DNA of 64,000 nucleotides from an uncultured Candidatus Saccharibacteria bacterium (GTDB lineage: Bacteria > Patescibacteriota > Minisyncoccia > Portnoybacterales > UBA2143). Below are positions 7,177-64,000 of this stretch, one piece after another. Numbering within the stretch: position 1 is the first letter of the stretch; each line of letters starts with the position of its first letter. The notes below the pieces were generated by a model. The model was not told where the DNA came from and made no database searches. It worked only from the letters and a program-made list of their open reading frames with translations. Where the stretch lies: positions 25,667-89,666 of the forward strand of contig CAZQMX010000001.1 of the NCBI GenBank assembly GCA_964594965.1, written 5' to 3'. The position numbers were made by a program, and so were the translations under genes.

Positions 7177-8409
7177 ATGTATTTAGTTAATACATTAAAA
7201 CTAGCTTTAAGAAATTTGACCTTGCAGAGGAGCAGGTCTTTTTTGACTATGCTCGGAATCATTATTGGTGTTGCTGCCGTTATTTCAATCATTGCCGTTG
7301 GAGCCAGCGCCCAGGATTTGCTTTTAGCCCAGGTTAGGGCAATGGGAAGTAATTTAATTGGTATTCTTCCCGGAGCGAGCGATGAATCCGGACCGCCGGC
7401 CAGTGTCCTTGGTATTGAAGTCACAACTTTGAAATATGAGGATGCTTTGGCTTTGGAAAAAATTCCTCAGATTGAAGCCGTTGCTGCCTATTCCAAGGGA
7501 CGGGGGACAATGAGTTTTTTTAATAAATCAAATGATTTTGACTATACCGGGGTAACGCCAAGTTATCTTAATGTTGAAGATACTGAACTGGAATCAGGCC
7601 GTTTTTTCAGACAAGAAGAAGTTGATAGTTTGGCCCGGGTGGTTGTTTTAGGCAGCAAAGTCAGAGAAGAACTTTTTGGCCAGAACAACCCAATAGATGA
7701 GAGAATTAAGATTAATCAGATTAGTTTTAAAGTTATTGGAGTAATGGAGGAAAGAGGTTCGGCCGCTTTTCAAAATCAGGATGAACAGGTCTTTATTCCA
7801 TTAAAAACAGCCCAGAAAATTATGCTAGGAGTAGACCACCTGGCTTTTATCCGGGCTAAAGTAGACCAGACCAAAAATATTGATCTGGTCATTCCTCAAA
7901 TTAAAAACATTCTTCGCTTCCGCCATAATATTAAAGACCCAACCAAGGATGATTTCTCTGTTAGGAGTACTGATCAGGCCCTTGACCTGCTTGGTTCAAT
8001 CACCCAGGCCTTAAAAGTATTTCTAGGCATGGTTGCCGCTATTTCGTTAATTGTCGGCGGTATCGGCATTATGAATATTATGTTTGTTGCTGTTAATGAA
8101 AGAACCAAGGAAATTGGTCTTCGAAAAGCAATTGGCGCCAAACGAAGAGATATTTTAATCCAGTTTTTAATTGAAAGCGCGACCATGACTTTAATCGGCG
8201 GAATCATCGGTATTATTGTTGGTATTATCATTTCTTTCCTAATTTTCATTGGTGTTAAATATTTTGGCTACGACTGGCGATTTATTGTCACTCCTTTTTC
8301 CATTTTTGTTTCAACTTTTATGGCTATTGCGGTCGGCCTAATTTTTGGCCTTTGGCCAGCTAACCGGGCTTCAAAGTTAAATCCAATTGAGGCGCTTAGG
8401 TATGAGTAA
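7177..8409 (+). CDS. ABC transporter permease, MacB/FtsX-like
   Basis: MacB-type periplasmic domain followed by an FtsX 4-TM domain (GGIGIMNIM). Start moved to the ATG after repeat copy A. The track start is a TTG that translates the repeat. Confidence 0.7.
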   Translation: MYLVNTLKLALRNLTLQRSRSFLTMLGIIIGVAAVISIIAVGASAQDLLLAQVRAMGSNLIGILPGASDESGPPASVLGIEVTTLKYEDALALEKIPQIEAVAAYSKGRGTMSFFNKSNDFDYTGVTPSYLNVEDTELESGRFFRQEEVDSLARVVVLGSKVREELFGQNNPIDERIKINQISFKVIGVMEERGSAAFQNQDEQVFIPLKTAQKIMLGVDHLAFIRAKVDQTKNIDLVIPQIKNILRFRHNIKDPTKDDFSVRSTDQALDLLGSITQALKVFLGMVAAISLIVGGIGIMNIMFVAVNERTKEIGLRKAIGAKRRDILIQFLIESATMTLIGGIIGIIVGIIISFLIFIGVKYFGYDWRFIVTPFSIFVSTFMAIAVGLIFGLWPANRASKLNPIEALRYE

Positions 8410-15787: not shown

Positions 15788-16516
15788 TTATTTTTTATCT
15801 AATTTTTTAAAAGTTTTGATAATAGGTGAGAGATCACCGTCAATAATTTTATCCAAATTATGCCAGGATTTCTTAATCCGATGGTCAGTAATCCTGTTTT
15901 GCGGAAAATTGTATGTTCTGATTTTCTCTGCCCGCATGGCCATACCAATCTGTCCCTTTCTTTCATCGCCCCGTAGGGCCAGATCTTCTTCTCTTTTTTT
16001 AGCCAAAAGGCGAGCCCGCAGAACATTCATTGCTCTTTCCTTGTTTTGTTGTTGGGATCTTTCTTCCTGACAAGTAACCATTATTCCGGTCGGAGTATGA
16101 ATAATTCTAACAGCTGATTCAGTCTTATTAACATGCTGGCCACCCGGCCCAGAAGCTCTTAAAACATCGATCCTAACATCCTTTGGATTAATCTTTATTT
16201 CAGTTTCAGTTGCTTCTTCTAAAACAGCGACCGAAGCAGTTGAAGTATGGACTCGGCCTGATTTCTCTGTAGTTGGAACGCGCTGGACCCGATGAACTCC
16301 GCCTTCGTATTTTAACTCTTGATAAGCATTTTCTCCCTTTATTTCAAAAACAATTTCCTTGTAGCCGTTTAATTCAGATTGACTACTATTAATTAAAAGA
16401 GTTTTCCAGTTTTCCTTTTCAGCAAAGCGGGAATACATTCTAAAGAGGTCGCCAGCGAAAATGGCTGCTTCTTGTCCGCCGGCACCAGCTCTGATTTCAA
16501 TAATTACACCCTTCAT
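15788..16516 (-). CDS. prfA: peptide chain release factor 1, lacking the N-terminal domain 1
   Basis: GGQ motif and an RF1-type PxT tripeptide (PTT). 242 aa, beginning at the domain-2 sequence [11 protein letters not shown]. The upstream sequence encodes L31, not the missing domain. Confidence 0.7.
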
Positions 16517-20074: not shown

Positions 20075-21142
20075 ATGGCTGGTAAACGGAAGCGAAAAAA
20101 ATACACTATCCATTTTGATTGGATTAAAGCCAAGGAAGTTTTCCAAATTATAGCGTCGGAATGGAATAAAAGAGAGAAATCAGGTGTTTATTATGGATTG
20201 GTTCTACCGCAGGATAACTACATATCCTCAGGCCTATCCGAAAAAGAATTAGCCCTTTTCTTTTTTTATGCTGTTCTACCACAACGGGGTAGTATTGACA
20301 GTGAAAGCCCAATGAAAGTTTGGTGGCGTTTCAGAGAAAGAACGCCTGAAGCATTTGATCCCGCCGTAGCGGTAAGAGACTTTTCTCCAGAAACGATTTT
20401 ATTTGGATTAAGAAAGACCATTGGTATAGAAAAAACAAATAAACGCGGTTTTAAACTGGAAGAACTGTCGAGGTTCTGGATTTACAACTCAGCAGAACTT
20501 CTAAAATTCTGGGACGGTGATCCAAGAAATATTTTTTCTAAAGTTAAAGACTTCAAAGAGGCCTTTAAGAGAATCGAGCGTAAGGCAGGCAAAACAATGT
20601 TTAAGGGTATGGGCATGAAAGTTTTTGCCCTACTAACCATTTATTTACAGGAAAGAAATTTAATTCCAATTTTTCCTACACCCTTGCCGCCGGATTTTCA
20701 CACTTTAAGAATATTATGGACGACTGGGATAATAAGGAGGAGTGATTGGATCAAACCTTGTTCTGCGACCAAATATCGTCCAGAACAACTAATTGGCAAG
20801 CCAGCAATTAATGTTGGTCATGGCTTTACAGACATAGTTGCTCTTTGGTCTCAAGGATTTATGGAAAAAAACGGATTTTTTCCCCTGGATATGAATCCGG
20901 CTATCTGGTTCTTGGGCAGGAGATGTAGTAAAAATTTCCAAAATCGCTCAAGAAAAAAAGCCAGTCAATACGCTGATCTGGCTAAATTAAGAAGAAATCC
21001 GAATCTATGGCCCAAGAGTTATAAAGATCTGTGCGCCGCTTGCCCAATTGAGAGGTATTGCAAATGGGCGATTCCCTCAATTCCATATTGGAGGTGGGGA
21101 CTATTAGTTAAACTAGGAAGAGGGGTTCCTTATCAGAAATAG
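20075..21142 (+). CDS. hypothetical protein with a C-terminal Cys cluster (CAACPIERYC)
   Basis: 355 aa, somewhat GC-richer than its neighbours. A C-x2-C-x5-C motif resembles part of an Fe-S cluster loop. No confident family assignment. Confidence 0.3.
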   Translation: MAGKRKRKKYTIHFDWIKAKEVFQIIASEWNKREKSGVYYGLVLPQDNYISSGLSEKELALFFFYAVLPQRGSIDSESPMKVWWRFRERTPEAFDPAVAVRDFSPETILFGLRKTIGIEKTNKRGFKLEELSRFWIYNSAELLKFWDGDPRNIFSKVKDFKEAFKRIERKAGKTMFKGMGMKVFALLTIYLQERNLIPIFPTPLPPDFHTLRILWTTGIIRRSDWIKPCSATKYRPEQLIGKPAINVGHGFTDIVALWSQGFMEKNGFFPLDMNPAIWFLGRRCSKNFQNRSRKKASQYADLAKLRRNPNLWPKSYKDLCAACPIERYCKWAIPSIPYWRWGLLVKLGRGVPYQK

Positions 21143-21175
21143 AGGCTGTTCTGTGAAATTGCAGGACAGCCTTTT
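21143..21175 (+). terminator. hairpin terminator
   Basis: AGGCTGTTCTG...CAGGACAGCCT followed by a T-tract. Confidence 0.4.
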
Positions 21176-21177
21176 AT

Positions 21178-21205
21178 TTGATTCAAAAAACAAGTGTGGT
21201 ATAAT
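21178..21205 (+). promoter_or_regulatory. putative promoter TTGATT, 16-nt spacer, TGgTATAAT
   Basis: Extended -10 element 28 nt upstream of the 21233 ATG. Confidence 0.4.
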
Positions 21206-21232
21206 AAGGGAAATAATTAACCAAATAAAAAC

Positions 21233-22156
21233 ATGGAAACAAACAATCACAATTCACCCAAATACGCCTTTTTATACATGCTTTCTTTAGCAGCCCTGAT
21301 GTTCACCGGCTTTTCAGTCGGCATGATTGCTTTTCAGATAATTAATAAATATGTCCCGGACGCTATTAATCAGTTCAGGCCCAGCTTTGATACCGGAGCG
21401 CTTCGTTTTGCCCTTTCAGCTTTACTAGTAGCAGCGCCGGTATTCTTTATCGTTAACTATTTCATCAACAAAGGTCTTTACAAAGGAGTCCTAACAAAAG
21501 ATTCCGGAGTCAGAAAATGGCTGACATATTTTATTCTCCTGGTCTCTTCGGTTGTTATTCTGGGCTGGTTTATTGGATTGATTAACACTTTTTTGGGAGG
21601 AGAACTAACCCTCAAATTTGCTCTGAAAGCTTTAATTTCAATTATTCTCTCAGCCCTGGCTTTTAGTTTCTATCTCTATGATATCCGTCGTGAAGGCATA
21701 GCAGGGAAGAAAGATGGTGTCGTTAGGATATATTTCTATATCGCCCTGATTATTGTCATCAGCGCCCTATCTTCGGCTTTGGTTTTCGGAGAAAGCCCAA
21801 TGGAAGCCAGAAACAAGAAACTGGACAGCGCAATTTTAAACGACTTCAGCAGCATTAAAAACGCCATAGACCAATATTATAATAGCAATGAGAGCCTGCC
21901 GAAAAATCTATCTGTCTTAGAAGGGGAAGTTGAATTTATGACCCAAGATAGATTAACTGATCCGGAAACGGATTCAAATTACCAATATAATATTTTGAGT
22001 GAAAGTGAATACGAATTATGCGCTAACTTTAGAACTTCCAATCTGGAAGATGACGATGGAATGAACGAATTTTATAGAGAAACCTGGCCGCATCAGAAAG
22101 GCAGGCAGTGCATTGAAAAGAGTGTTGAAGATCCAAAACCCACACCAATCAGATAA
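21233..22156 (+). CDS. hypothetical membrane protein (4 TM N-terminal domain, DUF5671-like) with a soluble Cys-containing C-terminal domain
   Basis: ORF and hydropathy only. N-terminus SPKYAFLYMLSLAAL. Confidence 0.3.
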   Translation: METNNHNSPKYAFLYMLSLAALMFTGFSVGMIAFQIINKYVPDAINQFRPSFDTGALRFALSALLVAAPVFFIVNYFINKGLYKGVLTKDSGVRKWLTYFILLVSSVVILGWFIGLINTFLGGELTLKFALKALISIILSALAFSFYLYDIRREGIAGKKDGVVRIYFYIALIIVISALSSALVFGESPMEARNKKLDSAILNDFSSIKNAIDQYYNSNESLPKNLSVLEGEVEFMTQDRLTDPETDSNYQYNILSESEYELCANFRTSNLEDDDGMNEFYRETWPHQKGRQCIEKSVEDPKPTPIR

Positions 22157-28890: not shown

Positions 28891-28988
28891 GGGTATGAAG
28901 TGAATGATTGTGGATAAAAGTGGGGATAAGTATATAAAATTGTGGATAACTGACTATTTTGTCTTAATCTTTGATTCAGATACAAAAT

Positions 28989-29055
28989 ATCATCCTGAGG
29001 AGCGAAGCGATCGAAGGATCTGTACAAACAGATTCTTCGCTTTGCTCAGAATGAC
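28989..29055 (+). repeat. MITE-like palindromic element, copy D
   Basis: ATCATCCTGAGGAGCGAAGCGATCGAAGGATCT / AGATTCTTCGCTTTGCTCAGAATGAC. 38 nt upstream of mraZ, inside the operon leader. Confidence 0.7.
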
Positions 29056-29092
29056 AATTCTAAAAAACAAAAGTAATAAAATAATAATTGGC

Positions 29093-29524
29093 ATGCTCAT
29101 TGGGGAATACAAACACATACTTGATGCTAAAAAAAGATTGGCTATTCCAGTCAAATTCAGGCGTTTTTTCAGCCAAGGAGCAGTCATTACCCGCGGAATT
29201 GATAATTGTTTGATTCTTTATCCGCTTAAGGAATGGGAAAGTATGGCTGGTAAATTAGGTCAGTTGCCAGCCAGCCAGATTGAAGCAAGGAGTTTTGCTA
29301 GAATTATGCTGGCTGGGGCTATGGCAGTAAAATTTGACCGATTGGGTCGAATTCTTGTTCCGGACTATCTGAAAAAATATGCTTTTTTGAAAAAGGGCGC
29401 TGTCATTATCGGCTTATACAATCGTCTTGAAATCTGGGCAGAAGAGAAATGGGAGACCTATCGAGGAAAGGCTGAAAAGGAGGTCGGCGACTTAGCTGCT
29501 AAACTAGGGGAATTGGGCTTGTAA
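29093..29524 (+). CDS. mraZ: transcriptional regulator MraZ
   Basis: MLIGEYKHILDAKKRLAIPVKFR, a typical MraZ N-terminus. Start trimmed from the track ORF, which translated the repeat. Confidence 0.75.
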   Translation: MLIGEYKHILDAKKRLAIPVKFRRFFSQGAVITRGIDNCLILYPLKEWESMAGKLGQLPASQIEARSFARIMLAGAMAVKFDRLGRILVPDYLKKYAFLKKGAVIIGLYNRLEIWAEEKWETYRGKAEKEVGDLAAKLGELGL

Positions 29525-29525
29525 T

Positions 29526-30443
29526 ATGCACCAGCCTGTCCTTCTAAACGAAGTTCTAAAATATCTTAATCCAGAATCAAACCAGGACTTTATTGACTGC
29601 ACTTTTGGCTGGGGAGGCCATTCTTTAGAAATACTAAAAAGAAACAAACCCAATGGTAAGGTTTTAGGAATAGAACGAGACAAAAAAGTTTTAGAGATTC
29701 TAGAAAAGGAAAGAAATGAAAAAAGATTAATTTTGGTTAATAATAATTTTTCTGACTTAGAGAGAATTGTTCAGGAAAATGAATTTCTGTCGGTTAACGG
29801 AATTCTCTTTGACCTGGGATTATCTTCCTGGCAAATAGAGAAAAGCGGAAAGGGATTTAGTTTTATGAGAGATGAACCACTTTTAATGAATTATGAATCA
29901 GGAATTAGGAATCAAGAATTAACAGCCGCGACAATCATCAACCAGTGGAGTAAAGAAGATTTAGAACAAATACTAAAAGAATACGGAGAAGAAAGATATG
30001 CCAGAAGAATAGCCCGAAAAATACATCAGAGCAGACAAAAACAGAAAATTGAAACAACTGGCCAATTAGTTGAAATTATTAAAAAAGCAGTTCCAATTAA
30101 TTATCAAAGAAGAAGAATCCCCCGAAAAAAAGCAAGCTTTTCACGGGGCAGGCATTTTGCAACTAAGACATTTCAGGCGTTAAGAATTGCGGTTAATGAC
30201 GAATTAAATAATCTGGAAAAAGCTCTTCCCCAAGCATTAAAGATTTTGAATAAGAAAGGTCGAATAGTAATTATCTCTTTCCACTCTTTAGAAGACAGAA
30301 TTGCTAAAAACTTTTTTCGTCAGAAAGCCAGAGAAGGGGAATTAGAAATTTTAATAAAAAAGCCCATTAGGCCAAGTCAGGAAGAAATTAAATTAAATCC
30401 TCGCAGCCGAAGCGCTAAATTAAGAGCGGCTGTGAAAATATAA
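29526..30443 (+). CDS. rsmH: 16S rRNA (cytosine1402-N4)-methyltransferase RsmH (MraW)
   Basis: HQPVLLNEVL...DCTFGWGGHS signature. Confidence 0.85.
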   Translation: MHQPVLLNEVLKYLNPESNQDFIDCTFGWGGHSLEILKRNKPNGKVLGIERDKKVLEILEKERNEKRLILVNNNFSDLERIVQENEFLSVNGILFDLGLSSWQIEKSGKGFSFMRDEPLLMNYESGIRNQELTAATIINQWSKEDLEQILKEYGEERYARRIARKIHQSRQKQKIETTGQLVEIIKKAVPINYQRRRIPRKKASFSRGRHFATKTFQALRIAVNDELNNLEKALPQALKILNKKGRIVIISFHSLEDRIAKNFFRQKAREGELEILIKKPIRPSQEEIKLNPRSRSAKLRAAVKI

Positions 30444-30444
30444 A

Positions 30445-30774
30445 ATGTTCTCGCACTACGCCAAATCAAAAAAATTCAGGAGGGGGCACAATCGCGGCTT
30501 GGCTCTTTTAAGCGTTTTAGTTTTTTTCTCAGTAATTTGTCTGGGATTTTTTTATTTAATCCAGACTAATAGTTTGGTTGGCCAGAGCTATAAGATCAGA
30601 GAACAGAAAAAGTATCTCGGAGAACTTGAAAACCAAAGGCATGATTTAGAAATTGAAATTGCCAGGATGCAATCACCAGCCAGCCTGGAAGAAATGATTC
30701 AATCATTGGATTTAATTGAAATCGGGCAAGTAATTTATCTTGAGAGTGAAAAGGCCATGGCAACGATAAGATGA
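30445..30774 (+). CDS. ftsL: cell division protein FtsL-like (single TM plus coiled coil)
   Basis: Position between rsmH and ftsI. 109 aa with a TM helix then a heptad-rich segment. Confidence 0.4.
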   Translation: MFSHYAKSKKFRRGHNRGLALLSVLVFFSVICLGFFYLIQTNSLVGQSYKIREQKKYLGELENQRHDLEIEIARMQSPASLEEMIQSLDLIEIGQVIYLESEKAMATIR

Positions 30775-32495
30775 AAAAAGATTGGCGGATTCATCTTCTA
30801 GTTATTATCATTTTCCTGATTGGGAGCGGGGTATTAACCCGCTTGTTTTCTCTCCAGATTTTTCGTTATGACTATTACAGCGCCTGGGCCAAAGACCAGC
30901 ATGAACTTTATCAAGAATTGGTTCCTCAACGGGGAGAAATCTTTATGCAGGATTTCTCAGCCAAGAAGAGAAATAATCAGAACCAGTATTATCCTTTGGC
31001 AATTAACAAGGAATTCCAACAAGTCTATGCTATTCCCCAGGATATTGACCAGGACAAAACAGAGGAAATATCCGAGAAACTCTCTTCTCTTATTGATTTA
31101 GATAAGGAAATAATCTTGAGCCGGATTAGCAAGCCAGATGATCCCTATGAACCATTAAAACATAAAATTAGTCAGGAGATTGCCAATCAGGTAGAAGAAC
31201 TTAATATTTCCGGAATAAAATTAGGGCCGGAAATCTGGCGGTATTATCCCAATGACGAATCAACCTGTCATTTAATCGGTTTTGTTGGCATGAGCGAAAA
31301 AGGAGACATTGGCCAATATGGATTAGAAAGATATTATCAGGATGAATTAGGAGGCAAGGCTGGTTTTATTGCCGGGCAAAAAGATACTGCCGGCTATTGG
31401 ATTCCTTCTTTGAGAGAAGATTTAGAACCAGCCGAAGACGGAGCCGATATTATCCTGACCATTGACCAAAATATCCAATTCAGGGCAGAAAGAGAATTAG
31501 AGAGAGTTATAGAAAGATGGCAGGCAGAAGCCGGGACAATTATTGTCCTTGAACCGGAAACCGGGGCAATCAGAGCAATGGCCAATTGGCCAACCTTTAA
31601 CCCAAACCAATACATGAAGGTTGAAGAAATTGATTCTTTTCTTAACCCTTCGGTCCAGAAAGTTTATGAACCAGGTTCTGTTTTTAAGGCCATTACCATG
31701 GCAGCCGGATTGGACAGCGGTAAAATTACTCCGGAAACAACCTATTACGATAAGGGAAGAATAACAATTAAAGGAAGTTTTATCAGTAATGTTGATGGCA
31801 GAACCTATGATTACCAAAATATGACTCAAGTTCTTGAAAAATCAATTAATACCGGGGCAGTTTTTGTCCAACAAGAAATTGGTCAGGAGATTTTCGCTGA
31901 CTATGTCCAGAGATTCGGCTTTGGCCAGACAACCGGAGCCGATTTAATCGGAGAAGTCAACGGCAATATCTCCAATCTTTTTACTGGTCGGGAAATCAAT
32001 TTAGCCACAATTTCATTTGGCCAGGGAATTACCGCTACGCCCTTGGGAATGCTTTCTGCTGTTGGGGCAATTGCTAATCAGGGAAAACTAATGCGTCCTT
32101 TTGTTGTTGAAAAGACAATCTGGCCGGATGGCAAGGAAGAAACCACCCAACCAGAAGTATTAAGGGAAACAATTTCTTCTCAATCAGCCAGGGAATTAAC
32201 CAAAATGCTTGTCAGCGCCGTTGAAAACGGCTATGGTAGACCTGCCCGGATTAGCGGCTATGATATTGCCGGCAAGACCGGTACAGCCCAGATAGCTGAT
32301 TTGGAAAAGGGCGGCTATACCGAAGAAACCATTCATAGCTTTATTGGTTACGCCCCTGCTTTTGACCCTAAGTTTGCTATTTTAATAAAGATTGATAAGC
32401 CCCAGGGTATTCGCTTTGCTTCTGATTCAGTTGGTCCGGTTTTCAGGGAATTAGCTGAGTATATTATTAACTATTTAGAAATACCTCCAGAGTAA
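30771..32495 (+). CDS. ftsI: penicillin-binding protein (FtsI/PBP2-type transpeptidase)
   Basis: SxxK (GSVFK), SxN-like and KTGT motifs, with an N-terminal TM helix. Confidence 0.8.
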   Translation: MKKDWRIHLLVIIIFLIGSGVLTRLFSLQIFRYDYYSAWAKDQHELYQELVPQRGEIFMQDFSAKKRNNQNQYYPLAINKEFQQVYAIPQDIDQDKTEEISEKLSSLIDLDKEIILSRISKPDDPYEPLKHKISQEIANQVEELNISGIKLGPEIWRYYPNDESTCHLIGFVGMSEKGDIGQYGLERYYQDELGGKAGFIAGQKDTAGYWIPSLREDLEPAEDGADIILTIDQNIQFRAERELERVIERWQAEAGTIIVLEPETGAIRAMANWPTFNPNQYMKVEEIDSFLNPSVQKVYEPGSVFKAITMAAGLDSGKITPETTYYDKGRITIKGSFISNVDGRTYDYQNMTQVLEKSINTGAVFVQQEIGQEIFADYVQRFGFGQTTGADLIGEVNGNISNLFTGREINLATISFGQGITATPLGMLSAVGAIANQGKLMRPFVVEKTIWPDGKEETTQPEVLRETISSQSARELTKMLVSAVENGYGRPARISGYDIAGKTGTAQIADLEKGGYTEETIHSFIGYAPAFDPKFAILIKIDKPQGIRFASDSVGPVFRELAEYIINYLEIPPE

Positions 32496-32626
32496 AAAAA
32501 TAACCAATCACCAAGATACAAGATACAAACAAATCTCAAACATCAATAATCAATCACCAAAAATTAATTTATTTGATTATTGATTATTATTTGGTTATTG
32601 TTTCTTGTTTCTTGATTATTTGAAAA
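32496..32626. repeat. AT-rich imperfect palindrome built from 7-nt periodic repeats (CAAGATA... / ...TTTCTTG)
   Basis: The left arm has heptamers ending in CAA. The right arm has heptamers TTGATTA/TTTCTTG, which are their reverse complement. Confidence 0.55.
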
Positions 32627-33895
32627 ATGCGTAGCATTTTACAATATATTCTAAAAATTCTGGCTAAAGTAGTCCTATATCGGTACAAACCGGAAATTGT
32701 TGCTGTAACCGGTAACGTTGGCAAAACCAGCACCAAAGAAGCTATTGCCCAGGTTTTAGAAAAATTCTTTCGGGTCAGACAAAACAAGAGGAATTACAAT
32801 AATGAGATTGGAGTGCCTTTAACAATAATTGGCTTAGAGACCGGCGGGAGTTCATTAATTGCCTGGTTGAAAAATTTTTTACTCGCTCTTAGAACAATTT
32901 TATGGAGAGGTGATTATCCGGAAATTCTGATTCTGGAGATGGGCATTGATAAGCCCGGAGATATGGAATATTTAATGAGTTTTATCCCGGTTGACGTCGC
33001 CGTTATCACCGCTATTGGAGAATTTCCTGTTCATCTTGAATTTTTCCCTGGAAAAGGAAAATTGGTTCAAGAAAAAGCCCTTTTGGCTAAATCACTTGAC
33101 GGAGAAGGCCAGGTGGTTCTAAATTACGATGATTTATCTGTTCGGGCGATTGGCGATGAGTTGCCCGAGGGATTAAAAAAGATTCAATACGGATTTGGTC
33201 AGGCAGCGAATTTAAGAATTATGAATTATGAATTAGGAATTAGGAATTTAGAAAAAAAAGATTTTGGCATAAGTTTCAAATTAGAATATGGAGGAAGTAT
33301 TGTCCCGGCCCAGATAAAGGGGGCAACCGGAAAACAACATGCCTTTGCCCTTGCCGCTGCCGCCGGAGTTGGATTGTATTTCGGCCTTAATCTGGTTGAG
33401 ATTTCAGGAGCTTTCAAAAAACATAGATCCTTACCCGGCCGAACCAACCTCTAAAAAGGAATTAAACAAACCTGGATTATTGATGATAGTTACAATGCTT
33501 CGCCTTTGGCAACTTTAGCTTCTCTGGAAATTCTAAACCAATTTTCAGAAGGAAAAAGAAGGAGAATTGCAGTCCTGGGTGATATGCTTGAATTAGGGAG
33601 CAAAACCGAAGAAGGTCATCGCCAAGTTGGAAAAAAAGTAAAAGAAACTGCTGATTTGCTTTTTACTGTTGGCAGCCGGGCTATCTTTATCGCTGACCAA
33701 GCCAGAAAAGCAGGAATGAAAAAAGAAAATATTTTTGAGTTCCAGACCTCAAAACAAGCCGGACTAGCAGTCCAAAAACAACTAATCAGCCAGGATATTA
33801 TTCTAGTTAAAGGGTCGCGCTCAATCCATACGGAAGAAGTTACCAGAGAAATTATGGCTCATCCGGAAAAAGCCGATGAATTGTTGGTAAAATAA
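32627..33895 (+). pseudogene. murF: UDP-MurNAc-tripeptide--D-Ala-D-Ala ligase MurF interrupted by a single in-frame TAA at 33452-33454
   Basis: Mur ligase P-loop TGNVGKTSTKE in ORF 1. DDSYNASP and the C-terminal domain are in ORF 2, which is in the same frame. The spacing GR-(14 aa)-DDSYNA matches intact MurF if the stop is read as sense. This may be a sequencing error or a genuine nonsense codon. Confidence 0.6.
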
Positions 33896-33967
33896 GATTG
33901 GACAAAACCGATGACTTGTGGTAAGTTAAAGATGTGGCCTTGCCATTCCGGAGCCTTAGCGAAGGAT

Positions 33968-34039
33968 GGCCCTATCGTCTAGTGGTTAGGACGCCGCTTT
34001 CTCAAGGCGGTAACACGGGTTCGACTCCCGTTGGGGCTA
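33968..34039 (+). tRNA. tRNA-Glu (anticodon CTC)
   Basis: Acceptor GGCCCTA/TGGGGCT with G.U wobbles at both ends, D arm GTCT/GGAC, anticodon stem CCGCT/GGCGG with loop TTCTCAA, T loop TTCGACT. Confidence 0.7.
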
Positions 34040-34104
34040 CAAGCCTAGACGGGTTCGCCCCGTCGGATGACGGGACGGTAGTCCATCGAAAGGAGGTGAT
34101 AAAA

Positions 34105-34362
34105 ATGGCGGAAGAAAAACCAATTGGTAAAGTTACTCACTACTTTACAAATATCGGAGTAGCTGTTGTTGAAATTACCAATGGTCAATTAAAAGTAGGC
34201 GACAAGATTCATATCAAGGGAGCAACAAGCGATTTTGAGCAAAAAATTGATTCAATGCAGATAGAACATGAAAGTGTTGAGAAAGCCAAAAAAGGACAAT
34301 CAATCGGCCTTAAGGTTGAACAACAGGTACGAGAAGGCGATGAAGTTTTTGTAGCTGAGTAG
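34105..34362 (+). CDS. small beta-barrel protein, EF-Tu domain-2-like fold; function unknown
   Basis: Strong ribosome-binding site AAGGAGGTG. 85 aa. The track ORF's N-terminus is a translated tRNA-Glu and was trimmed. Confidence 0.35.
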   Translation: MAEEKPIGKVTHYFTNIGVAVVEITNGQLKVGDKIHIKGATSDFEQKIDSMQIEHESVEKAKKGQSIGLKVEQQVREGDEVFVAE

Positions 34363-34365
34363 TTT

Positions 34366-35331
34366 TTGAATAATATGAAAAAGAAAAGGACCAAAACAAA
34401 GGGTCTGGCGCTTTTGTCTGGCGGCTTGGATTCTATTTTGGCAATAAAGATTTTACAAGAGCAGGGAATTGAGGTAACTGGCTTATGTTTTGTCAGTTAT
34501 TTTTTTAATTCAGCCGCAGCTGAAAAAGCAGCTAAGAAACTTAAAATTAAATTAAAGATTATTGATTTTTCAGAAGAGCATCTGGAAGTTGTTAAAAAAC
34601 CTCGCCACGGCCATGGTAAGGCTATCAATCCCTGTATTGACTGCCATCTTTTGATGATTAAAAAAGCCGGTGAAATTATGAAGAAAGAGAAATTTGATTT
34701 TGTTGCTACCGGCGAAGTTTTAGGCGAAAGACCAATGTCCCAGAACAAACAAGCCCTCGAATTGATTGAAAGAGAATCCGGCCTGAAAGGATATTTGCTC
34801 CGACCCTTATCAGCCAAACTTTTTAAACCAACAATTCTGGAAGAAAAAGGATTAATTAAAAGAGAACAACTTTTGGATATTTCCGGAAGAAGCCGGAAAA
34901 GACAAATGGCTTTGGCTGAAGAATATGGAATAAGGGATTATCCAACCCCGGCTGGCGGATGCCTTTTAACCGATCTTCAATTCGGCGACAGATTAAAAGA
35001 AATGCTTTCTCATTGGCCAAAAGCCAAAGGAAGTGATGTTAAGTTATTAAGGTTCGGTCGTCACTTCTGGATCGAAGAAAATTTAATTGTTGTTGGCAGG
35101 AATAAGGGGGATAATAATAGAATAAAGGAATTGGCGCAAAAAGGAGATGTTTTGATTGAGCCGAAAGAATTTCCTGGTCCAACAATTCTAATCAGGGGCA
35201 AACCCGCCCGCCATGCTTCGCAAGGCGAAGCGGGCAGGGAAAAAATTTTGGAAAAAAGCTTAATCCAGGCCAAGGATTTAATGATTAAATATTCGCCAAA
35301 GCTGAGAAAGAAATCTAGCTCCGAAAACTAA
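34366..35331 (+). CDS. ThiI-like PP-loop ATPase (tRNA sulfurtransferase catalytic domain without THUMP)
   Basis: SGGLDSILA PP-loop and GEVLGERPMSQNKQALELIE, ThiI-like. CxxC pairs (CIDCH). Confidence 0.45.
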   Translation: MNNMKKKRTKTKGLALLSGGLDSILAIKILQEQGIEVTGLCFVSYFFNSAAAEKAAKKLKIKLKIIDFSEEHLEVVKKPRHGHGKAINPCIDCHLLMIKKAGEIMKKEKFDFVATGEVLGERPMSQNKQALELIERESGLKGYLLRPLSAKLFKPTILEEKGLIKREQLLDISGRSRKRQMALAEEYGIRDYPTPAGGCLLTDLQFGDRLKEMLSHWPKAKGSDVKLLRFGRHFWIEENLIVVGRNKGDNNRIKELAQKGDVLIEPKEFPGPTILIRGKPARHASQGEAGREKILEKSLIQAKDLMIKYSPKLRKKSSSEN

Positions 35332-56022: not shown

Positions 56023-57075
56023 ATGCTTATGCCTGATATATTTTTTATCTCAAGAATCATGGGATTAGGAGCAATTTCTTTTCTTTTTGCTTTGGCCTGG
56101 ACGCCCTTCTTGGTTCGTTTTCTTGAAAAGTACAAAATGGGCAAGCAAATCAGGACAGAGGGGGTCCCATACTTCGCCAAACATCACAGCAAGAAAGAGG
56201 GGACTCCAACCATGGGCGGAATCTTAATTTGGATGACAGTTTTGTTTTTAACCCTGCTTTTCTGGATTTTAGCTAAAGCCGGGGACGGAACAATTCTTCA
56301 AAACTTTGATTTCTTGACAAGGAAAGAAACTCTTCTTCCTTTGGGCGCCCTGATCGCCTCGGCCTTAGTTGGTTTAGGGGATGATTTGCTGGGAATTTTT
56401 AAGATTGGTTCTAGTGGCGGCGGGCTTAAAATCCGCCATCGTCTTTTAATCTATACCGCTATTGCCGTTTTCGGCGCCTGGTGGTTTTTTGTTAAGTTGG
56501 AATGGGATTTGGTCCATGTTCCTTTTCTGGGAGATTTTAATATCGGTCTTTGGTATATTCTCGTTTTTATCTTTGTTTTAGTTGCGACTGCTTTTTCAAC
56601 AAATCAAACCGATGGACTTGATGGATTAGCCGGCGGGATTCTTTTAATTGGTTTTGCTTCTTACGGGGCGATTGCCTTTTCCCAGGGCAAAATGGATTTA
56701 GCTGCTTTTTGCGGAGTAATTATTGGGGCCCTATTGGCCTTCCTCTGGTTTAATATTTACCCAGCCAGATTTTTTATGGGTGATACCGGGTCAATGTCAT
56801 TGGGAATTACCCTGGGCATTATTGCCATGCTGACAAACTATTTTCTTCTTCTTCCTTTAATCTTTTTTATTCCGGTAGTAGAATCGGTTTCGACTGCAGT
56901 CCAGATGCTTTCAAAAAAAATCAGAAAGAAAAAAATATTTCTTTCGGCGCCTATTCATCATCATTTTGAAGCTAAAGGATGGCATGAGACAAAGGTGACT
57001 ATGCGTTTCTGGATGATTAATGGAACCATGGCGGTGATAGGATTAATTCTTGTTTTTATTGAAGTAATCATTTAG
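56023..57075 (+). CDS. mraY: phospho-N-acetylmuramoyl-pentapeptide transferase MraY
   Basis: DGLDGLAGG and PIHHHFE motifs. Confidence 0.85.
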   Translation: MLMPDIFFISRIMGLGAISFLFALAWTPFLVRFLEKYKMGKQIRTEGVPYFAKHHSKKEGTPTMGGILIWMTVLFLTLLFWILAKAGDGTILQNFDFLTRKETLLPLGALIASALVGLGDDLLGIFKIGSSGGGLKIRHRLLIYTAIAVFGAWWFFVKLEWDLVHVPFLGDFNIGLWYILVFIFVLVATAFSTNQTDGLDGLAGGILLIGFASYGAIAFSQGKMDLAAFCGVIIGALLAFLWFNIYPARFFMGDTGSMSLGITLGIIAMLTNYFLLLPLIFFIPVVESVSTAVQMLSKKIRKKKIFLSAPIHHHFEAKGWHETKVTMRFWMINGTMAVIGLILVFIEVII

Positions 57076-57120
57076 GGCTTTCTCTAAAATTTCTGCGAAA
57101 TTTTAGCTAGAAAACCTTTA

Positions 57121-57219
57121 CCCCGCCCCCTATACTCTGACTCAATCATTAGAGAATTATACATAGAAACAGATTATCCGTATTATCAAACAAGAAATCA
57201 GAGTAAAGGGGGCGGGGTG
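57121..57219. repeat. 99-bp element bounded by 20-bp GC-rich terminal inverted repeats (CCCCGCCCCCTWTACTCTGA)
   Basis: Left arm 57121-57140, right arm 57198-57219, one mismatch in 20. The only C5GC5 run in the window. Confidence 0.55.
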
Positions 57220-57286
57220 CTCAATGTTGTAGCTAAATTTATTTCGCTACACTTGAGTTTCGCTCATAAATTTAGACAACATTCGC

Positions 57287-58381
57287 ATGAAAGTCCATCA
57301 ACCAGACTATTTTTTCATCTCAGCTGTTTTTGTTCTGGTTGTTTTTGGTTTAGTTGTTTTATCAAGCGCTTCGGTTGTCATTTCCCAGGAAACCTTTGGA
57401 GAAAATTACTATTTCCTCAAGCACCAGCTTATTTACGGCCTTTTAATTGGATTAGTTGCTTTTTTTGTTGTTCAGAGAATTAATTACCGCTTTTGGCAGA
57501 AACTAGCTTTTCCTTTAATGATTTTGGGTTTAATTCTTTTGGCGCTGGTTTTTCTGCCGGGAATAGGATATGGCCATGGAGAAGCCAAACGTTGGATAAG
57601 TTTAGGTCCCTTTTCTCTTCAGCCCTTTGAATTTATTAAATTAAGTTTTGTTCTTTACTTGGCAGCGCTCTTGAGTAGAAGAGGGGAAAGCAAAGAGGTA
57701 ATTAAAGAGAGTTTAATTCCTTTTCTGGTCAGCTTTGTTGTTATTAGCATCCTGGTTCTTTTCCAGCCCAATATGAGCGCTTTTATCTTAATTTCTTTAA
57801 TTGCCGGCCTAGTATATTTCCTGGCCGGAGTTAAGTTTTCCTATTTAATATCATTAGGGGTATTGGCTTTATCCAGTTTTTTTGTTTTAATAAAGGTAAC
57901 ACCTTATCGGATGAGAAGGTTAACGGTATTCCTCCATCCGGAGATTGATCCGCAGGGGATTGGCTATCAGATTAATCAGGCCCTTTTGGCTATTGGTTCA
58001 GGCGGTCTTTTCGGATTAGGTCTGGGGCACAGCATCCAAAAATGGAAATACCTGCCGGAAGTTATTGGTGATTCCATTTTCGCCATTATCGCTGAAGAAC
58101 TTGGATTAATTGGGGCTGGTCTTCTGGTTGGTTTATTCATCTTTCTGTTCTGGCGGGGATTAAAAATTGCTAAAAACGCTCCTGATAAATTTGGCTATCT
58201 TTTAGCTGGTAGTATTACGGGCTGGCTCTTCTTTCAGGTTTTTATCAATATTATGGCAATCTGTGGAATGATTCCTTTAACCGGCATGCCCTTGCCTTTT
58301 ATCAGTTACGGCGGTTCTGCTTTAGCGATTTCTCTGGCAGCGGTTGGTATAGTAACTAATATTTCTAAGTATACAAACTAG
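57287..58381 (+). CDS. ftsW: cell division/peptidoglycan glycosyltransferase FtsW (SEDS family)
   Basis: 10 TM helices and SEDS motifs. Sits in the dcw cluster. Confidence 0.8.
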   Translation: MKVHQPDYFFISAVFVLVVFGLVVLSSASVVISQETFGENYYFLKHQLIYGLLIGLVAFFVVQRINYRFWQKLAFPLMILGLILLALVFLPGIGYGHGEAKRWISLGPFSLQPFEFIKLSFVLYLAALLSRRGESKEVIKESLIPFLVSFVVISILVLFQPNMSAFILISLIAGLVYFLAGVKFSYLISLGVLALSSFFVLIKVTPYRMRRLTVFLHPEIDPQGIGYQINQALLAIGSGGLFGLGLGHSIQKWKYLPEVIGDSIFAIIAEELGLIGAGLLVGLFIFLFWRGLKIAKNAPDKFGYLLAGSITGWLFFQVFINIMAICGMIPLTGMPLPFISYGGSALAISLAAVGIVTNISKYTN

Positions 58382-58460
58382 AATAATGAATAATGAATCA
58401 CGAATAAGGAATAGATTTAATTCTTGATTCCTAATTCTTAATTCTTAATTCTGATTCCTA
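58382..58460. repeat. inverted arrays of 7-nt periodic repeats (GAATAAT... / ...ATTCTTA)
   Basis: GAATAATGAATAATGAATCACGAATAAGGAAT | ATTCTTGATTCCTAATTCTTAATTCTTAATTCTGATTCC. Confidence 0.6.
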
Positions 58461-59567
58461 ATGAGAATAGTATTTGCCGGTGGCGGCACTGGCGGACATA
58501 TTTATCCGATTATTGCCGTAGCCAGACAATTAAAACAGGGACAAATACCCTTGGAAATGTTCTTTCTTGGACCAGTTGGTCCTTATCGTCAGGAACTGGA
58601 AAAAGAGGGGATTATTGTCAAGTCGGTCCTGGCCGGAAAATTAAGAAGATATTTTTCCATTTGGACAATTTTGGATATTTTAAAGTTTCCTCTTGGTCTA
58701 ATTCAATCTCTTTGGTATTTGTTTATCCTAATGCCGGACATTGTTTTTTCCAAAGGGGGATACGGCAGTGTTCCGATTACCCTGGTCTCCTGGACATATT
58801 TCATCCCAATCATTTCTCATGAATCAGATGCTGTTCCGGGTCTGGCTAATCGCATTGGAGCATTTTTTTCAAAAAGAATTGCTCTTTCATTTCAATCGGC
58901 CGGGAAGTATTTTTCTTCTAAAAAAACTGCTTTGGTTGGTAATCCAATCCGTTCAGAGATTGCCCAGATTTGTCTTTCAACTGATTCTCAAGAAAAAGAA
59001 AAAGGCAAACAACTTTTTAGCATTTCCGGTCAAAAGCCAATTATTTTGATTTTAGGCGGCAGTCAGGGGGCAGAGAAAATTAATCGATTGGTCTTATCCG
59101 TTTTGCCCAGTCTCTTGGAGAAATATGAGGTTATTCATCAATCCGGGCCAAAAAATTATGAGAAGATAAAAAGCTGGTTAAAGCAAATGCCGGTTAATTA
59201 CCATCTCTTTCCATTTTTGGATGAAAACCAGATTGCCCACGCCTATCTTGTTTCTAATCTAATCATTTCCCGGGCCGGAGCAGGAAGTATTTCAGAAATT
59301 GCCGCTTGCGGAAAGCCAAGCATTTTAATCCCAATTCCTAAATCAGCCTCTGACCATCAGAGAAAAAATGCTTTTGATTACGCTCGGGCCGGAGCAACAT
59401 CAGTTCTGGAACAGGATAATTTAACGCCTAATTTGCTCTTAAACGAAATATCAGAGATACTGGATAATCCGGAATTAGCCCAGAAAATGTCTTTGAATGC
59501 CAAGAATTTTTCCCGGCCCCGAGCCGCCCAAAAAATCGCAGAGGAAATAGTTGAGATGGGGAGGTAG
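58461..59567 (+). CDS. murG: UDP-GlcNAc--MurNAc-pentapeptide GlcNAc transferase MurG
   Basis: GGGTGGHIYP N-terminal motif and the GT28 C-terminal domain. Confidence 0.85.
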   Translation: MRIVFAGGGTGGHIYPIIAVARQLKQGQIPLEMFFLGPVGPYRQELEKEGIIVKSVLAGKLRRYFSIWTILDILKFPLGLIQSLWYLFILMPDIVFSKGGYGSVPITLVSWTYFIPIISHESDAVPGLANRIGAFFSKRIALSFQSAGKYFSSKKTALVGNPIRSEIAQICLSTDSQEKEKGKQLFSISGQKPIILILGGSQGAEKINRLVLSVLPSLLEKYEVIHQSGPKNYEKIKSWLKQMPVNYHLFPFLDENQIAHAYLVSNLIISRAGAGSISEIAACGKPSILIPIPKSASDHQRKNAFDYARAGATSVLEQDNLTPNLLLNEISEILDNPELAQKMSLNAKNFSRPRAAQKIAEEIVEMGR

Positions 59568-63626: not shown

Positions 63627-64000
63627 ATGGAGAAAAGCAAAAAGCCACTAATTCAACATTTAACTGATTTTTTGGATTGGCTTGATATTGAAAAAGGTTT
63701 GTCAAATAAATCCCAGGAAAACTATTCCCGCTTCCTCAAAAAGTTTATTGGTTGGCTAGAAGAAAATAAATTAGAGGGCCTAAGGCCTCACGAGCTCTCC
63801 CCCGGCCATATTTGGGAATATCGGGTCTATCTATCACGCCACTCAAAGAAACCACTTAAAAAATCTACCCAGAACTATTACTTAATCGCTTTAAGGTCTT
63901 TTTTAAACTATTTTGCCAACCGGGATATTATTTCTCTCCCCGCCGAAAAAATTAAATTAGCCAAGGATAAAGGCGAAAAGAAGATACATTTTTTAACCAT
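63627..64000 (+). CDS. tyrosine recombinase XerC/XerD-family, N-terminal SAM-like domain; partial because it runs off the window
   Basis: MEKSKKPLIQHLTDFLDWL...LSNKSQENYSRFLKKF...IALRSFLNYF matches the integrase N-terminal core-binding domain. Not in the ORF track because the window ends before a stop. Confidence 0.55.
   Translation, partial: MEKSKKPLIQHLTDFLDWLDIEKGLSNKSQENYSRFLKKFIGWLEENKLEGLRPHELSPGHIWEYRVYLSRHSKKPLKKSTQNYYLIALRSFLNYFANRDIISLPAEKIKLAKDKGEKKIHFLT

Follow-up and report, generated by a model that had tools for sequence, protein, structure and literature searches.

The murF gene of the window, by which we mean the whole 64,000-nucleotide stretch of DNA analyzed here, is interrupted by a single in-frame stop codon, TAA at positions 33452 to 33454 of the forward strand. 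This stop occupies codon 276 of a 422-codon gene for a MurF-type Mur ligase (32627 to 33895) and is a derived, assembly-private change of one base, T to A at 33453, that turns the leucine codon TTA into TAA. We give about an even chance to the reading that it is a recent, nonprogrammed point mutation carried by the genotype that one assembly captured. A real, recent nonsense allele is slightly favored over an error in the consensus, and we infer that real cells carried the A at 33453 and that it did not originate in sequencing or assembly. For annotation the two readings are equivalent, as in either case an intact gene shows one accidental base change. The annotation of murF in this metagenome-assembled genome (MAG) should describe an intact gene with a nonsense variant or a possible error; the TAA provides no evidence of recoding, of a lost capacity to make peptidoglycan, or of a split enzyme.

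The reading frame continues in phase on both sides of the stop. An upstream ORF (32627 to 33454; ATG start; 275 amino acids) and a downstream ORF (33506 to 33895; TTG start; 129 amino acids) share one frame, and the earlier note was right to describe murF as broken by one in-frame TAA with its downstream frame kept. On the forward strand, the gene is made up of its first 275 codons (32627 to 33451), delimited by the ORF list, Pfam Mur_ligase_M, and TIGR01143; the TAA that replaces the Leu276 codon of the intact allele (33452 to 33454, changed base 33453), placed by the sequence itself and by comparison with four sibling assemblies (L001 to L004) and a sister species (L005); and a remainder of 146 codons plus the genuine TAA stop (33455 to 33895), which encodes the C-terminal domain of the ligase with its DDSYNA motif, according to its translation and Pfam. 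The sequence around the stop reads CCG GGC CGA ACC AAC CTC TAA AAA GGA ATT, in the A-rich context already described for it, and the codons 3' of the stop are AAA GGA ATT AAA CAA ACC TGG ATT ATT GAT GAT AGT TAC AAT GCT TCG CCT TTG.

Translated straight through, positions 32627 to 33895 yield one continuous Mur ligase with a single stop symbol, ...LPGRTNL*KGIKQTWIIDDSYNASP.... This read-through product is 100% identical over 422 amino acids to intact database proteins, which places the interrupted ORF far beyond chance. Namely, the intact 422-residue protein P0001 is identical to the read-through sequence and has Leu at position 276, and P0002 (also 422 amino acids) shows one change; the translation of 33455 to 33895 is 100% identical to residues 277 to 422 of P0001. 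The spacing between GR and DDSYNA had been claimed to be exactly that of intact MurF, at 14 residues. The agreement with intact relatives stands, as the pattern GR-x13-(D/V)(D/G)(S/T)YN occurs in 118 of 120 homologs, but the spacer has 13 residues, not 14.

The assignment of the gene to murF and the intactness of the neighboring dcw genes, both asserted from the sequence beforehand, agree with Pfam, NCBIfam, and the gene tables of the sibling loci. Pfam Mur_ligase_M (PF08245) matches the first piece (E = 4.9e-20 to 1.5e-19), and a P-loop, TGNVGKTS, lies at residues 28 to 35 of the product, with the GxxGKT/S motif of Mur ligases. Pfam Mur_ligase_C (PF02875) spans the stop, covering residues 271 to 398 of the read-through sequence, in which the stop is residue 276 (E = 3.2e-18 to 8.8e-19; profile positions 11 to 127 of 127), and the IIDDSYNASP motif is present. 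The best NCBIfam family is TIGR01143 (murF), with 230.8 bits against a cutoff of 288.6, compared with at most 35 bits for MurE, MurD, and MurC; the shortfall fits the absence of an N-terminal domain. All PDB matches of the product are MurF proteins, and its alignments to 3ZM5 (Streptococcus pneumoniae MurF) and to 2AM1 start at chain residue 89, indicating that the MurF of this lineage lacks the classical N-terminal domain 1 of about 80 residues. Since the 120 closest homologs have a similarly short architecture (391 to 451 amino acids), this absence is a trait of the lineage and not a defect of the window copy. Judging from the names attached to these relatives, the host is a bacterium of the Patescibacteria/Parcubacteria type (candidate phyla radiation [CPR]).

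Next, we compared the window with four sibling assemblies, L001 (JGI 3300009105), L002 (ENA ERZ23499057/SAMN10231903), L003 (JGI 3300009374), and L004 (JGI 3300009405). These five assemblies may come from the same site, belong to a time series, or share reads. The siblings are 99.95 to 100% identical to the window, and all four have TTA (Leu) where the window has TAA, with the frame intact; the comparison with strain variants that had been proposed thus returned a sense codon in every same-population assembly. Base 33453 is A in the window and T in every other assembly, and it is the sole difference between L001 and the window in 19,202 nucleotides. JGI 3300009374 (L086, L003, and L089) covers positions 1472 to 64000 and differs from the window at three sites, all in murF and all within 59 nucleotides.

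The sister species L005 (CAZQUN010000004.1), with 90% protein and about 86% DNA identity, also carries TTA at the stop site, and therefore TAA is the derived state. More broadly, all 115 homologs, among the 120 nearest, that can be aligned at position 276 have I, L, V, or M there. A truncated MurF of 275 amino acids, P0017, exists on an NCBI-derived contig of 135,417 nucleotides and is presumably the window's own protein record, so the stop belongs to the deposited sequence. Three options had been listed for this codon in the earlier note, a sequencing error, a real nonsense allele, and readthrough of the stop; the single-base nature of the change and the TTA in all four siblings support the first two and count against the third. 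We also considered a decaying pseudogene and rejected it, as there is a single lesion and the rest of murF is 100% identical to the intact allele. A real lesion here would be very recent.

Could the window allele nevertheless produce a full-length MurF, with UAA decoded through programmed readthrough, a suppressor tRNA, or a reassignment of TAA? The perfectly kept frame and the solitary lesion would suit such decoding, yet we regard it as very improbable, above all because no other assembly of this population carries the stop. The in-frame stop is likewise missing from the sister species and from 118 homologs. TAA is the principal terminator of the window, since it closes 35 of 55 long, nonoverlapping ORFs (TAG closes 12 and TGA closes 8); with murF set aside, it still ends 34 of the 54 others, and every one of the three stop codons serves as a terminator. 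The six tRNAs of the window (Thr, Tyr, Thr, Trp, Glu, and Lys) include none with a stop-reading anticodon, and the check for suppressor tRNAs that had been suggested was thus negative among these six. Around the stop, the minimum free energy of RNA folding is no better than that of shuffled sequences (z = +0.74), arguing against a stimulatory structure, and Rfam finds nothing at the murF region beyond the downstream tRNA-Glu and a subthreshold RAGATH-8 match. Finally, of the three stop codons, UAA is generally the one least prone to leaky reading in bacteria.

The release factor of the window bears on both sides of this question. An RF1 gene with PxT and GGQ motifs is present (15788 to 16516, reverse strand; 242 amino acids; NF001859, 392 bits versus a cutoff of 400), and its presence counts against decoding. 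Its product matches RF1 profiles only from position 105 or 113 on, with a PTT motif of the PxT type and GGQ, and thus lacks the N-terminal domain. As this RF1, short of about 105 N-terminal profile residues, is the sole release factor seen in the window, one may speculate that leaky termination is conceivable.

An in-frame stop within a conserved CPR-type gene also recalls the stop recoding of Patescibacteria relatives and programmed readthrough in general. Genetic code 25, in which UGA is read as glycine, is used by Gracilibacteria and Absconditabacteria. Here, in contrast, the codon is TAA, the main terminator, and even the other assemblies of its population lack the in-frame stop. We rejected membership in a recoding system, since the features that define one (a conserved stop, an otherwise unused terminator, and a stimulatory structure) do not occur at this site. 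We regard the TAA as an ordinary nonsense variant, or possibly an error, in a MAG, and there is no recoding signal.

An even less probable scenario is that MurF is made as two polypeptides, with the central domain ending at the TAA and the C-terminal domain reinitiated downstream. In its favor, the stop (residue 276) lies where Mur_ligase_M gives way to Mur_ligase_C, whose profile begins at residue 271. Read directly, the sequence from 33455 to 33505 has no ATG, GTG, or TTG in frame, and the earlier statement that no ATG is available for a restart is correct. The earliest canonical start after the stop is the TTG at 33506, and a product begun there would lose the conserved strand and motif WIIDDSYNASP. 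The ATT codons at 33461, 33476, and 33479 could be imagined as restarts, and suitably spaced sequences resembling a Shine-Dalgarno element are absent upstream of them. The ATG of murF itself lacks an obvious Shine-Dalgarno sequence, so a missing one downstream is not decisive. Yet neither any relative nor any other assembly of this population has the split, and we know of no functional split Mur ligase.

With decoding and splitting set aside as improbable, the weight of the matter lies between a real allele and a consensus error, and here the surroundings of the stop are informative. A base-by-base comparison of the five assemblies reveals a cluster of three variable sites within 59 nucleotides (33453 to 33511). 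These are 33453 (T/A; Leu/stop at codon 276), 33483 (A/T; GAT to GTT, which replaces Asp286, the first D of DDSYNA, with Val), and 33511 (A/T; GCA/GCT, synonymous). In the order 33453-33483-33511, the window has A-A-A, L001 and the sister species have the ancestral T-A-A (the codons of L005 being TTA, GAT, and GCA), L002 has T-T-A, and L003 and L004 have T-T-T, so that the haplotypes form a stepwise series across the five assemblies. For 3 of 7 variable sites to fall within 59 nucleotides of 62.5 kb has a probability of 8.4e-5, and for three sites considered by themselves it is 3e-6. The derived alleles at 33483 and 33511 recur in three and two assemblies, respectively; these are therefore probably real polymorphisms, and A-to-T and T-to-A changes would accordingly be segregating in this population. 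Residue 286 is Asp in 117 of 118 relatives, and Val is confined to the population of the window. Asp is not universally required at this position, since S. pneumoniae MurF has Ser there.

The remaining four variants among the five assemblies are private to the ENA assembly L002: T>A at 8078 (Ile>Asn in an FtsX-type permease); G>T at 29979 (7353 in L002), a GAA>TAA nonsense change in rsmH/mraW that shortens RsmH to 151 amino acids; and A>T at both 40474 and 40476, 2 nucleotides apart, which cause Lys>Asn and Lys>Ile in rmuC. These private changes look error-like. Altogether, the seven microvariants are transversions without exception, six of them between A and T and one G>T. This spectrum differs sharply from the divergence between the window and the sister species, in which 79% of the changes are transitions and 6% are A-T exchanges (P = 1.8e-5 for seven transversions in seven; P = 4e-7 for at least six A-T exchanges). 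Two of the seven variants are nonsense, four are missense, and one is synonymous, a mix that resembles unselected changes. Such a transversion-only spectrum points to either a technical signature or a mutational process of the translesion type.

That the organism has TTA alone, and that the A at 33453 is a consensus error due to base calling, low local coverage, or amplification duplicates, is a serious possibility to which we give somewhat less than an even chance. The A is found in one of the five assemblies and in no second one, the TAA allele would be lethal if real, and the ENA assembly carries private changes of the same odd and damaging kind (GAA>TAA in rsmH and AAAAAAA>AATATAA in rmuC). 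The transversion-only, mostly A-T spectrum is unlike the natural substitutions of the lineage and could be of technical origin. Moreover, the change sits at the boundary of a T run and an A run (CTCTTAAAAGG > CTCTAAAAAGG). In being a private transversion at a homopolymer boundary, the change resembles a consensus or base-call error of a short-read assembly.

Several results argue in the opposite direction. Outside the three murF sites, the window and an independent assembly, JGI 3300009374, agree at every base over about 62.5 kb, and the random error rate of the window must therefore be very low; with no other private difference in that span, it lies under roughly 2e-5 per base. An error striking at random would also have had to land within 30 nucleotides of the other two variable sites (P of about 0.0014), which adjoin the stop as reproducible polymorphisms and recur in independent assemblies. 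The option of a simple error, as put forward in the earlier note, is thus kept as a rival, weakened by the clustering within 59 nucleotides. A systematic, locus-specific artifact would rescue it, and none was identified, as the site shows no repeat, no stable structure (the z score given above), and no phasing pattern. Transversion-only spectra can also be biological, for SOS-induced translesion synthesis is described in one preprint as a source of transversion-specific mutagenesis (bioRxiv 10.1101/2020.01.15.908301).

Two specific technical origins were tried and rejected. An Illumina phasing-type error downstream of CCCGGCCG does not account for the sites, because the substituted bases are not consistently equal to the neighboring base. 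A chimeric assembly with the murF of another species, joined through the conserved TGGATTATTGATGA, is contradicted by flanks that are identical on both sides and by the GTT at codon 286, which occurs in no relative.

The preferred reading, a real and recent nonsense allele, resembles other nonsense single-nucleotide variants in MAGs. The murF of the window differs by one base change from an intact allele that co-occurs in the population, with its frame preserved, no additional lesion, and intact neighboring genes. It departs from such variants in affecting a gene that is normally essential and in belonging to a significant 59-nucleotide cluster composed only of A-T transversions. Under this reading, the T>A change at 33453 would have arisen recently in a nearly clonal population of Patescibacteria whose murF is normally intact. 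The mutant gene would then give a 275-residue product consisting of the central ATP-binding domain alone. Without the whole C-terminal domain and its DDSYNA motif, this product is presumably inactive, judging from its domain content, and a null or near-null allele would be expected; nothing in the sequence appears to rescue it. As MurF is normally essential, one would not expect an assembler to report a null allele as the majority or plurality genotype, and this consideration weighs against a real allele. On the other hand, the 59-nucleotide stretch of murF would be the sole difference among otherwise identical genomes, which may suggest a local mutational or selective cause common to all three variants.

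Which local cause might this be? Repeats and quasi-palindromes near the cluster were sought as a mutational cause, and only chance matches of 9 to 11 nucleotides were found. A diversity-generating retroelement, considered on account of the A/T-only cluster, was rejected, since there is no second copy of 33380 to 33580 in the window (the best match is 17 nucleotides) and no reverse transcriptase domain in the gene tables of the identical loci. The "untargeted" mutagenesis of SOS-induced translesion synthesis offers a closer likeness. It induces transversions, as the preprint cited above describes, and all seven variants are transversions. The variants are also partly clustered (33453/33483/33511 and 40474/40476), although this is a resemblance only. 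In contrast, the spectrum observed here is one of seven events, and the gene tables of the sibling loci spanning the window list no gene for a translesion polymerase.

The cluster also overlaps a putative antisense promoter. The best sigma-70-like match in the region from 32400 to 34100 lies on the reverse strand, antisense to murF, at 33483 to 33512, with a -35 hexamer TTGCCA (33512 to 33507), an 18-nucleotide spacer, and a -10 hexamer TATCAT (33488 to 33483), agreeing at 10 of 12 positions. Variable site 33511 falls on the second T of the -35 hexamer and 33483 on the last T of the -10 hexamer; the derived alleles reduce the match from 10/12 to 8/12. A putative antisense transcript started there would reach the stop site after about 23 nucleotides. 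The probability that two random sites 28 nucleotides apart fall in both hexamers of one match is 4.4e-4, a value calculated post hoc after other features had been tried, and the whole window contains 36 sigma-70-like matches of equal quality. The variants private to the ENA assembly do not lie within any promoter-like match. The overlap may be a coincidence.

We consider it unlikely, though less so than decoding or splitting, that these 59 nucleotides of murF are a genuine hotspot of which the TAA is one real outcome, produced by repeated synthesis of the translesion type or by selection on the antisense promoter, whose -35 and -10 hexamers the two recurrent variants would destroy, or on its transcript, with leaky UAA termination, through an RF1 without its N-terminal domain, letting cells with the nonsense allele persist. 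If the cluster is real, it would offer a rare look at evolution inside a population of an uncultivated Patescibacteria lineage, whose genomes match over more than 60 kb with three transversions in 59 nucleotides of an essential gene as the sole exception. Such a pattern would suggest error-prone synthesis confined to this locus, or else selection on an antisense promoter within the gene.

Some features elsewhere in the window can be described briefly. The dcw cluster is split in two, with mraZ, rsmH, a 109-residue ftsL-like gene, ftsI, and murF at 28904 to 33895 and mraY, ftsW, and murG at 56023 to 59567; murC, murD, murE, and ddl do not appear within the window in the gene tables of the sibling loci. 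A tRNA-Glu(CTC) gene lies directly 3' of murF (33968 to 34040) and is followed by a call for an 85-amino-acid gene (34105 to 34362) whose sole match, in identical loci, is to EF-Tu domain 2 (PF03144). The ORF listed at 33934 to 34362 overlaps the tRNA gene, and its upstream part is probably spurious. The weak RAGATH-8 match (34653 to 34881, forward strand; 21.7 bits versus a gathering threshold of 86.7; E = 0.007) falls within a ThiI-like gene and is most likely due to chance. At the other end, a gene for a phage-type integrase begins at about 63627 and continues past the end of the window at 64000 (20269 to 21413 in the sibling contig L089), where it is followed by a PDDEXK/Cas4-like gene; this end of the window may be the edge of a mobile element.
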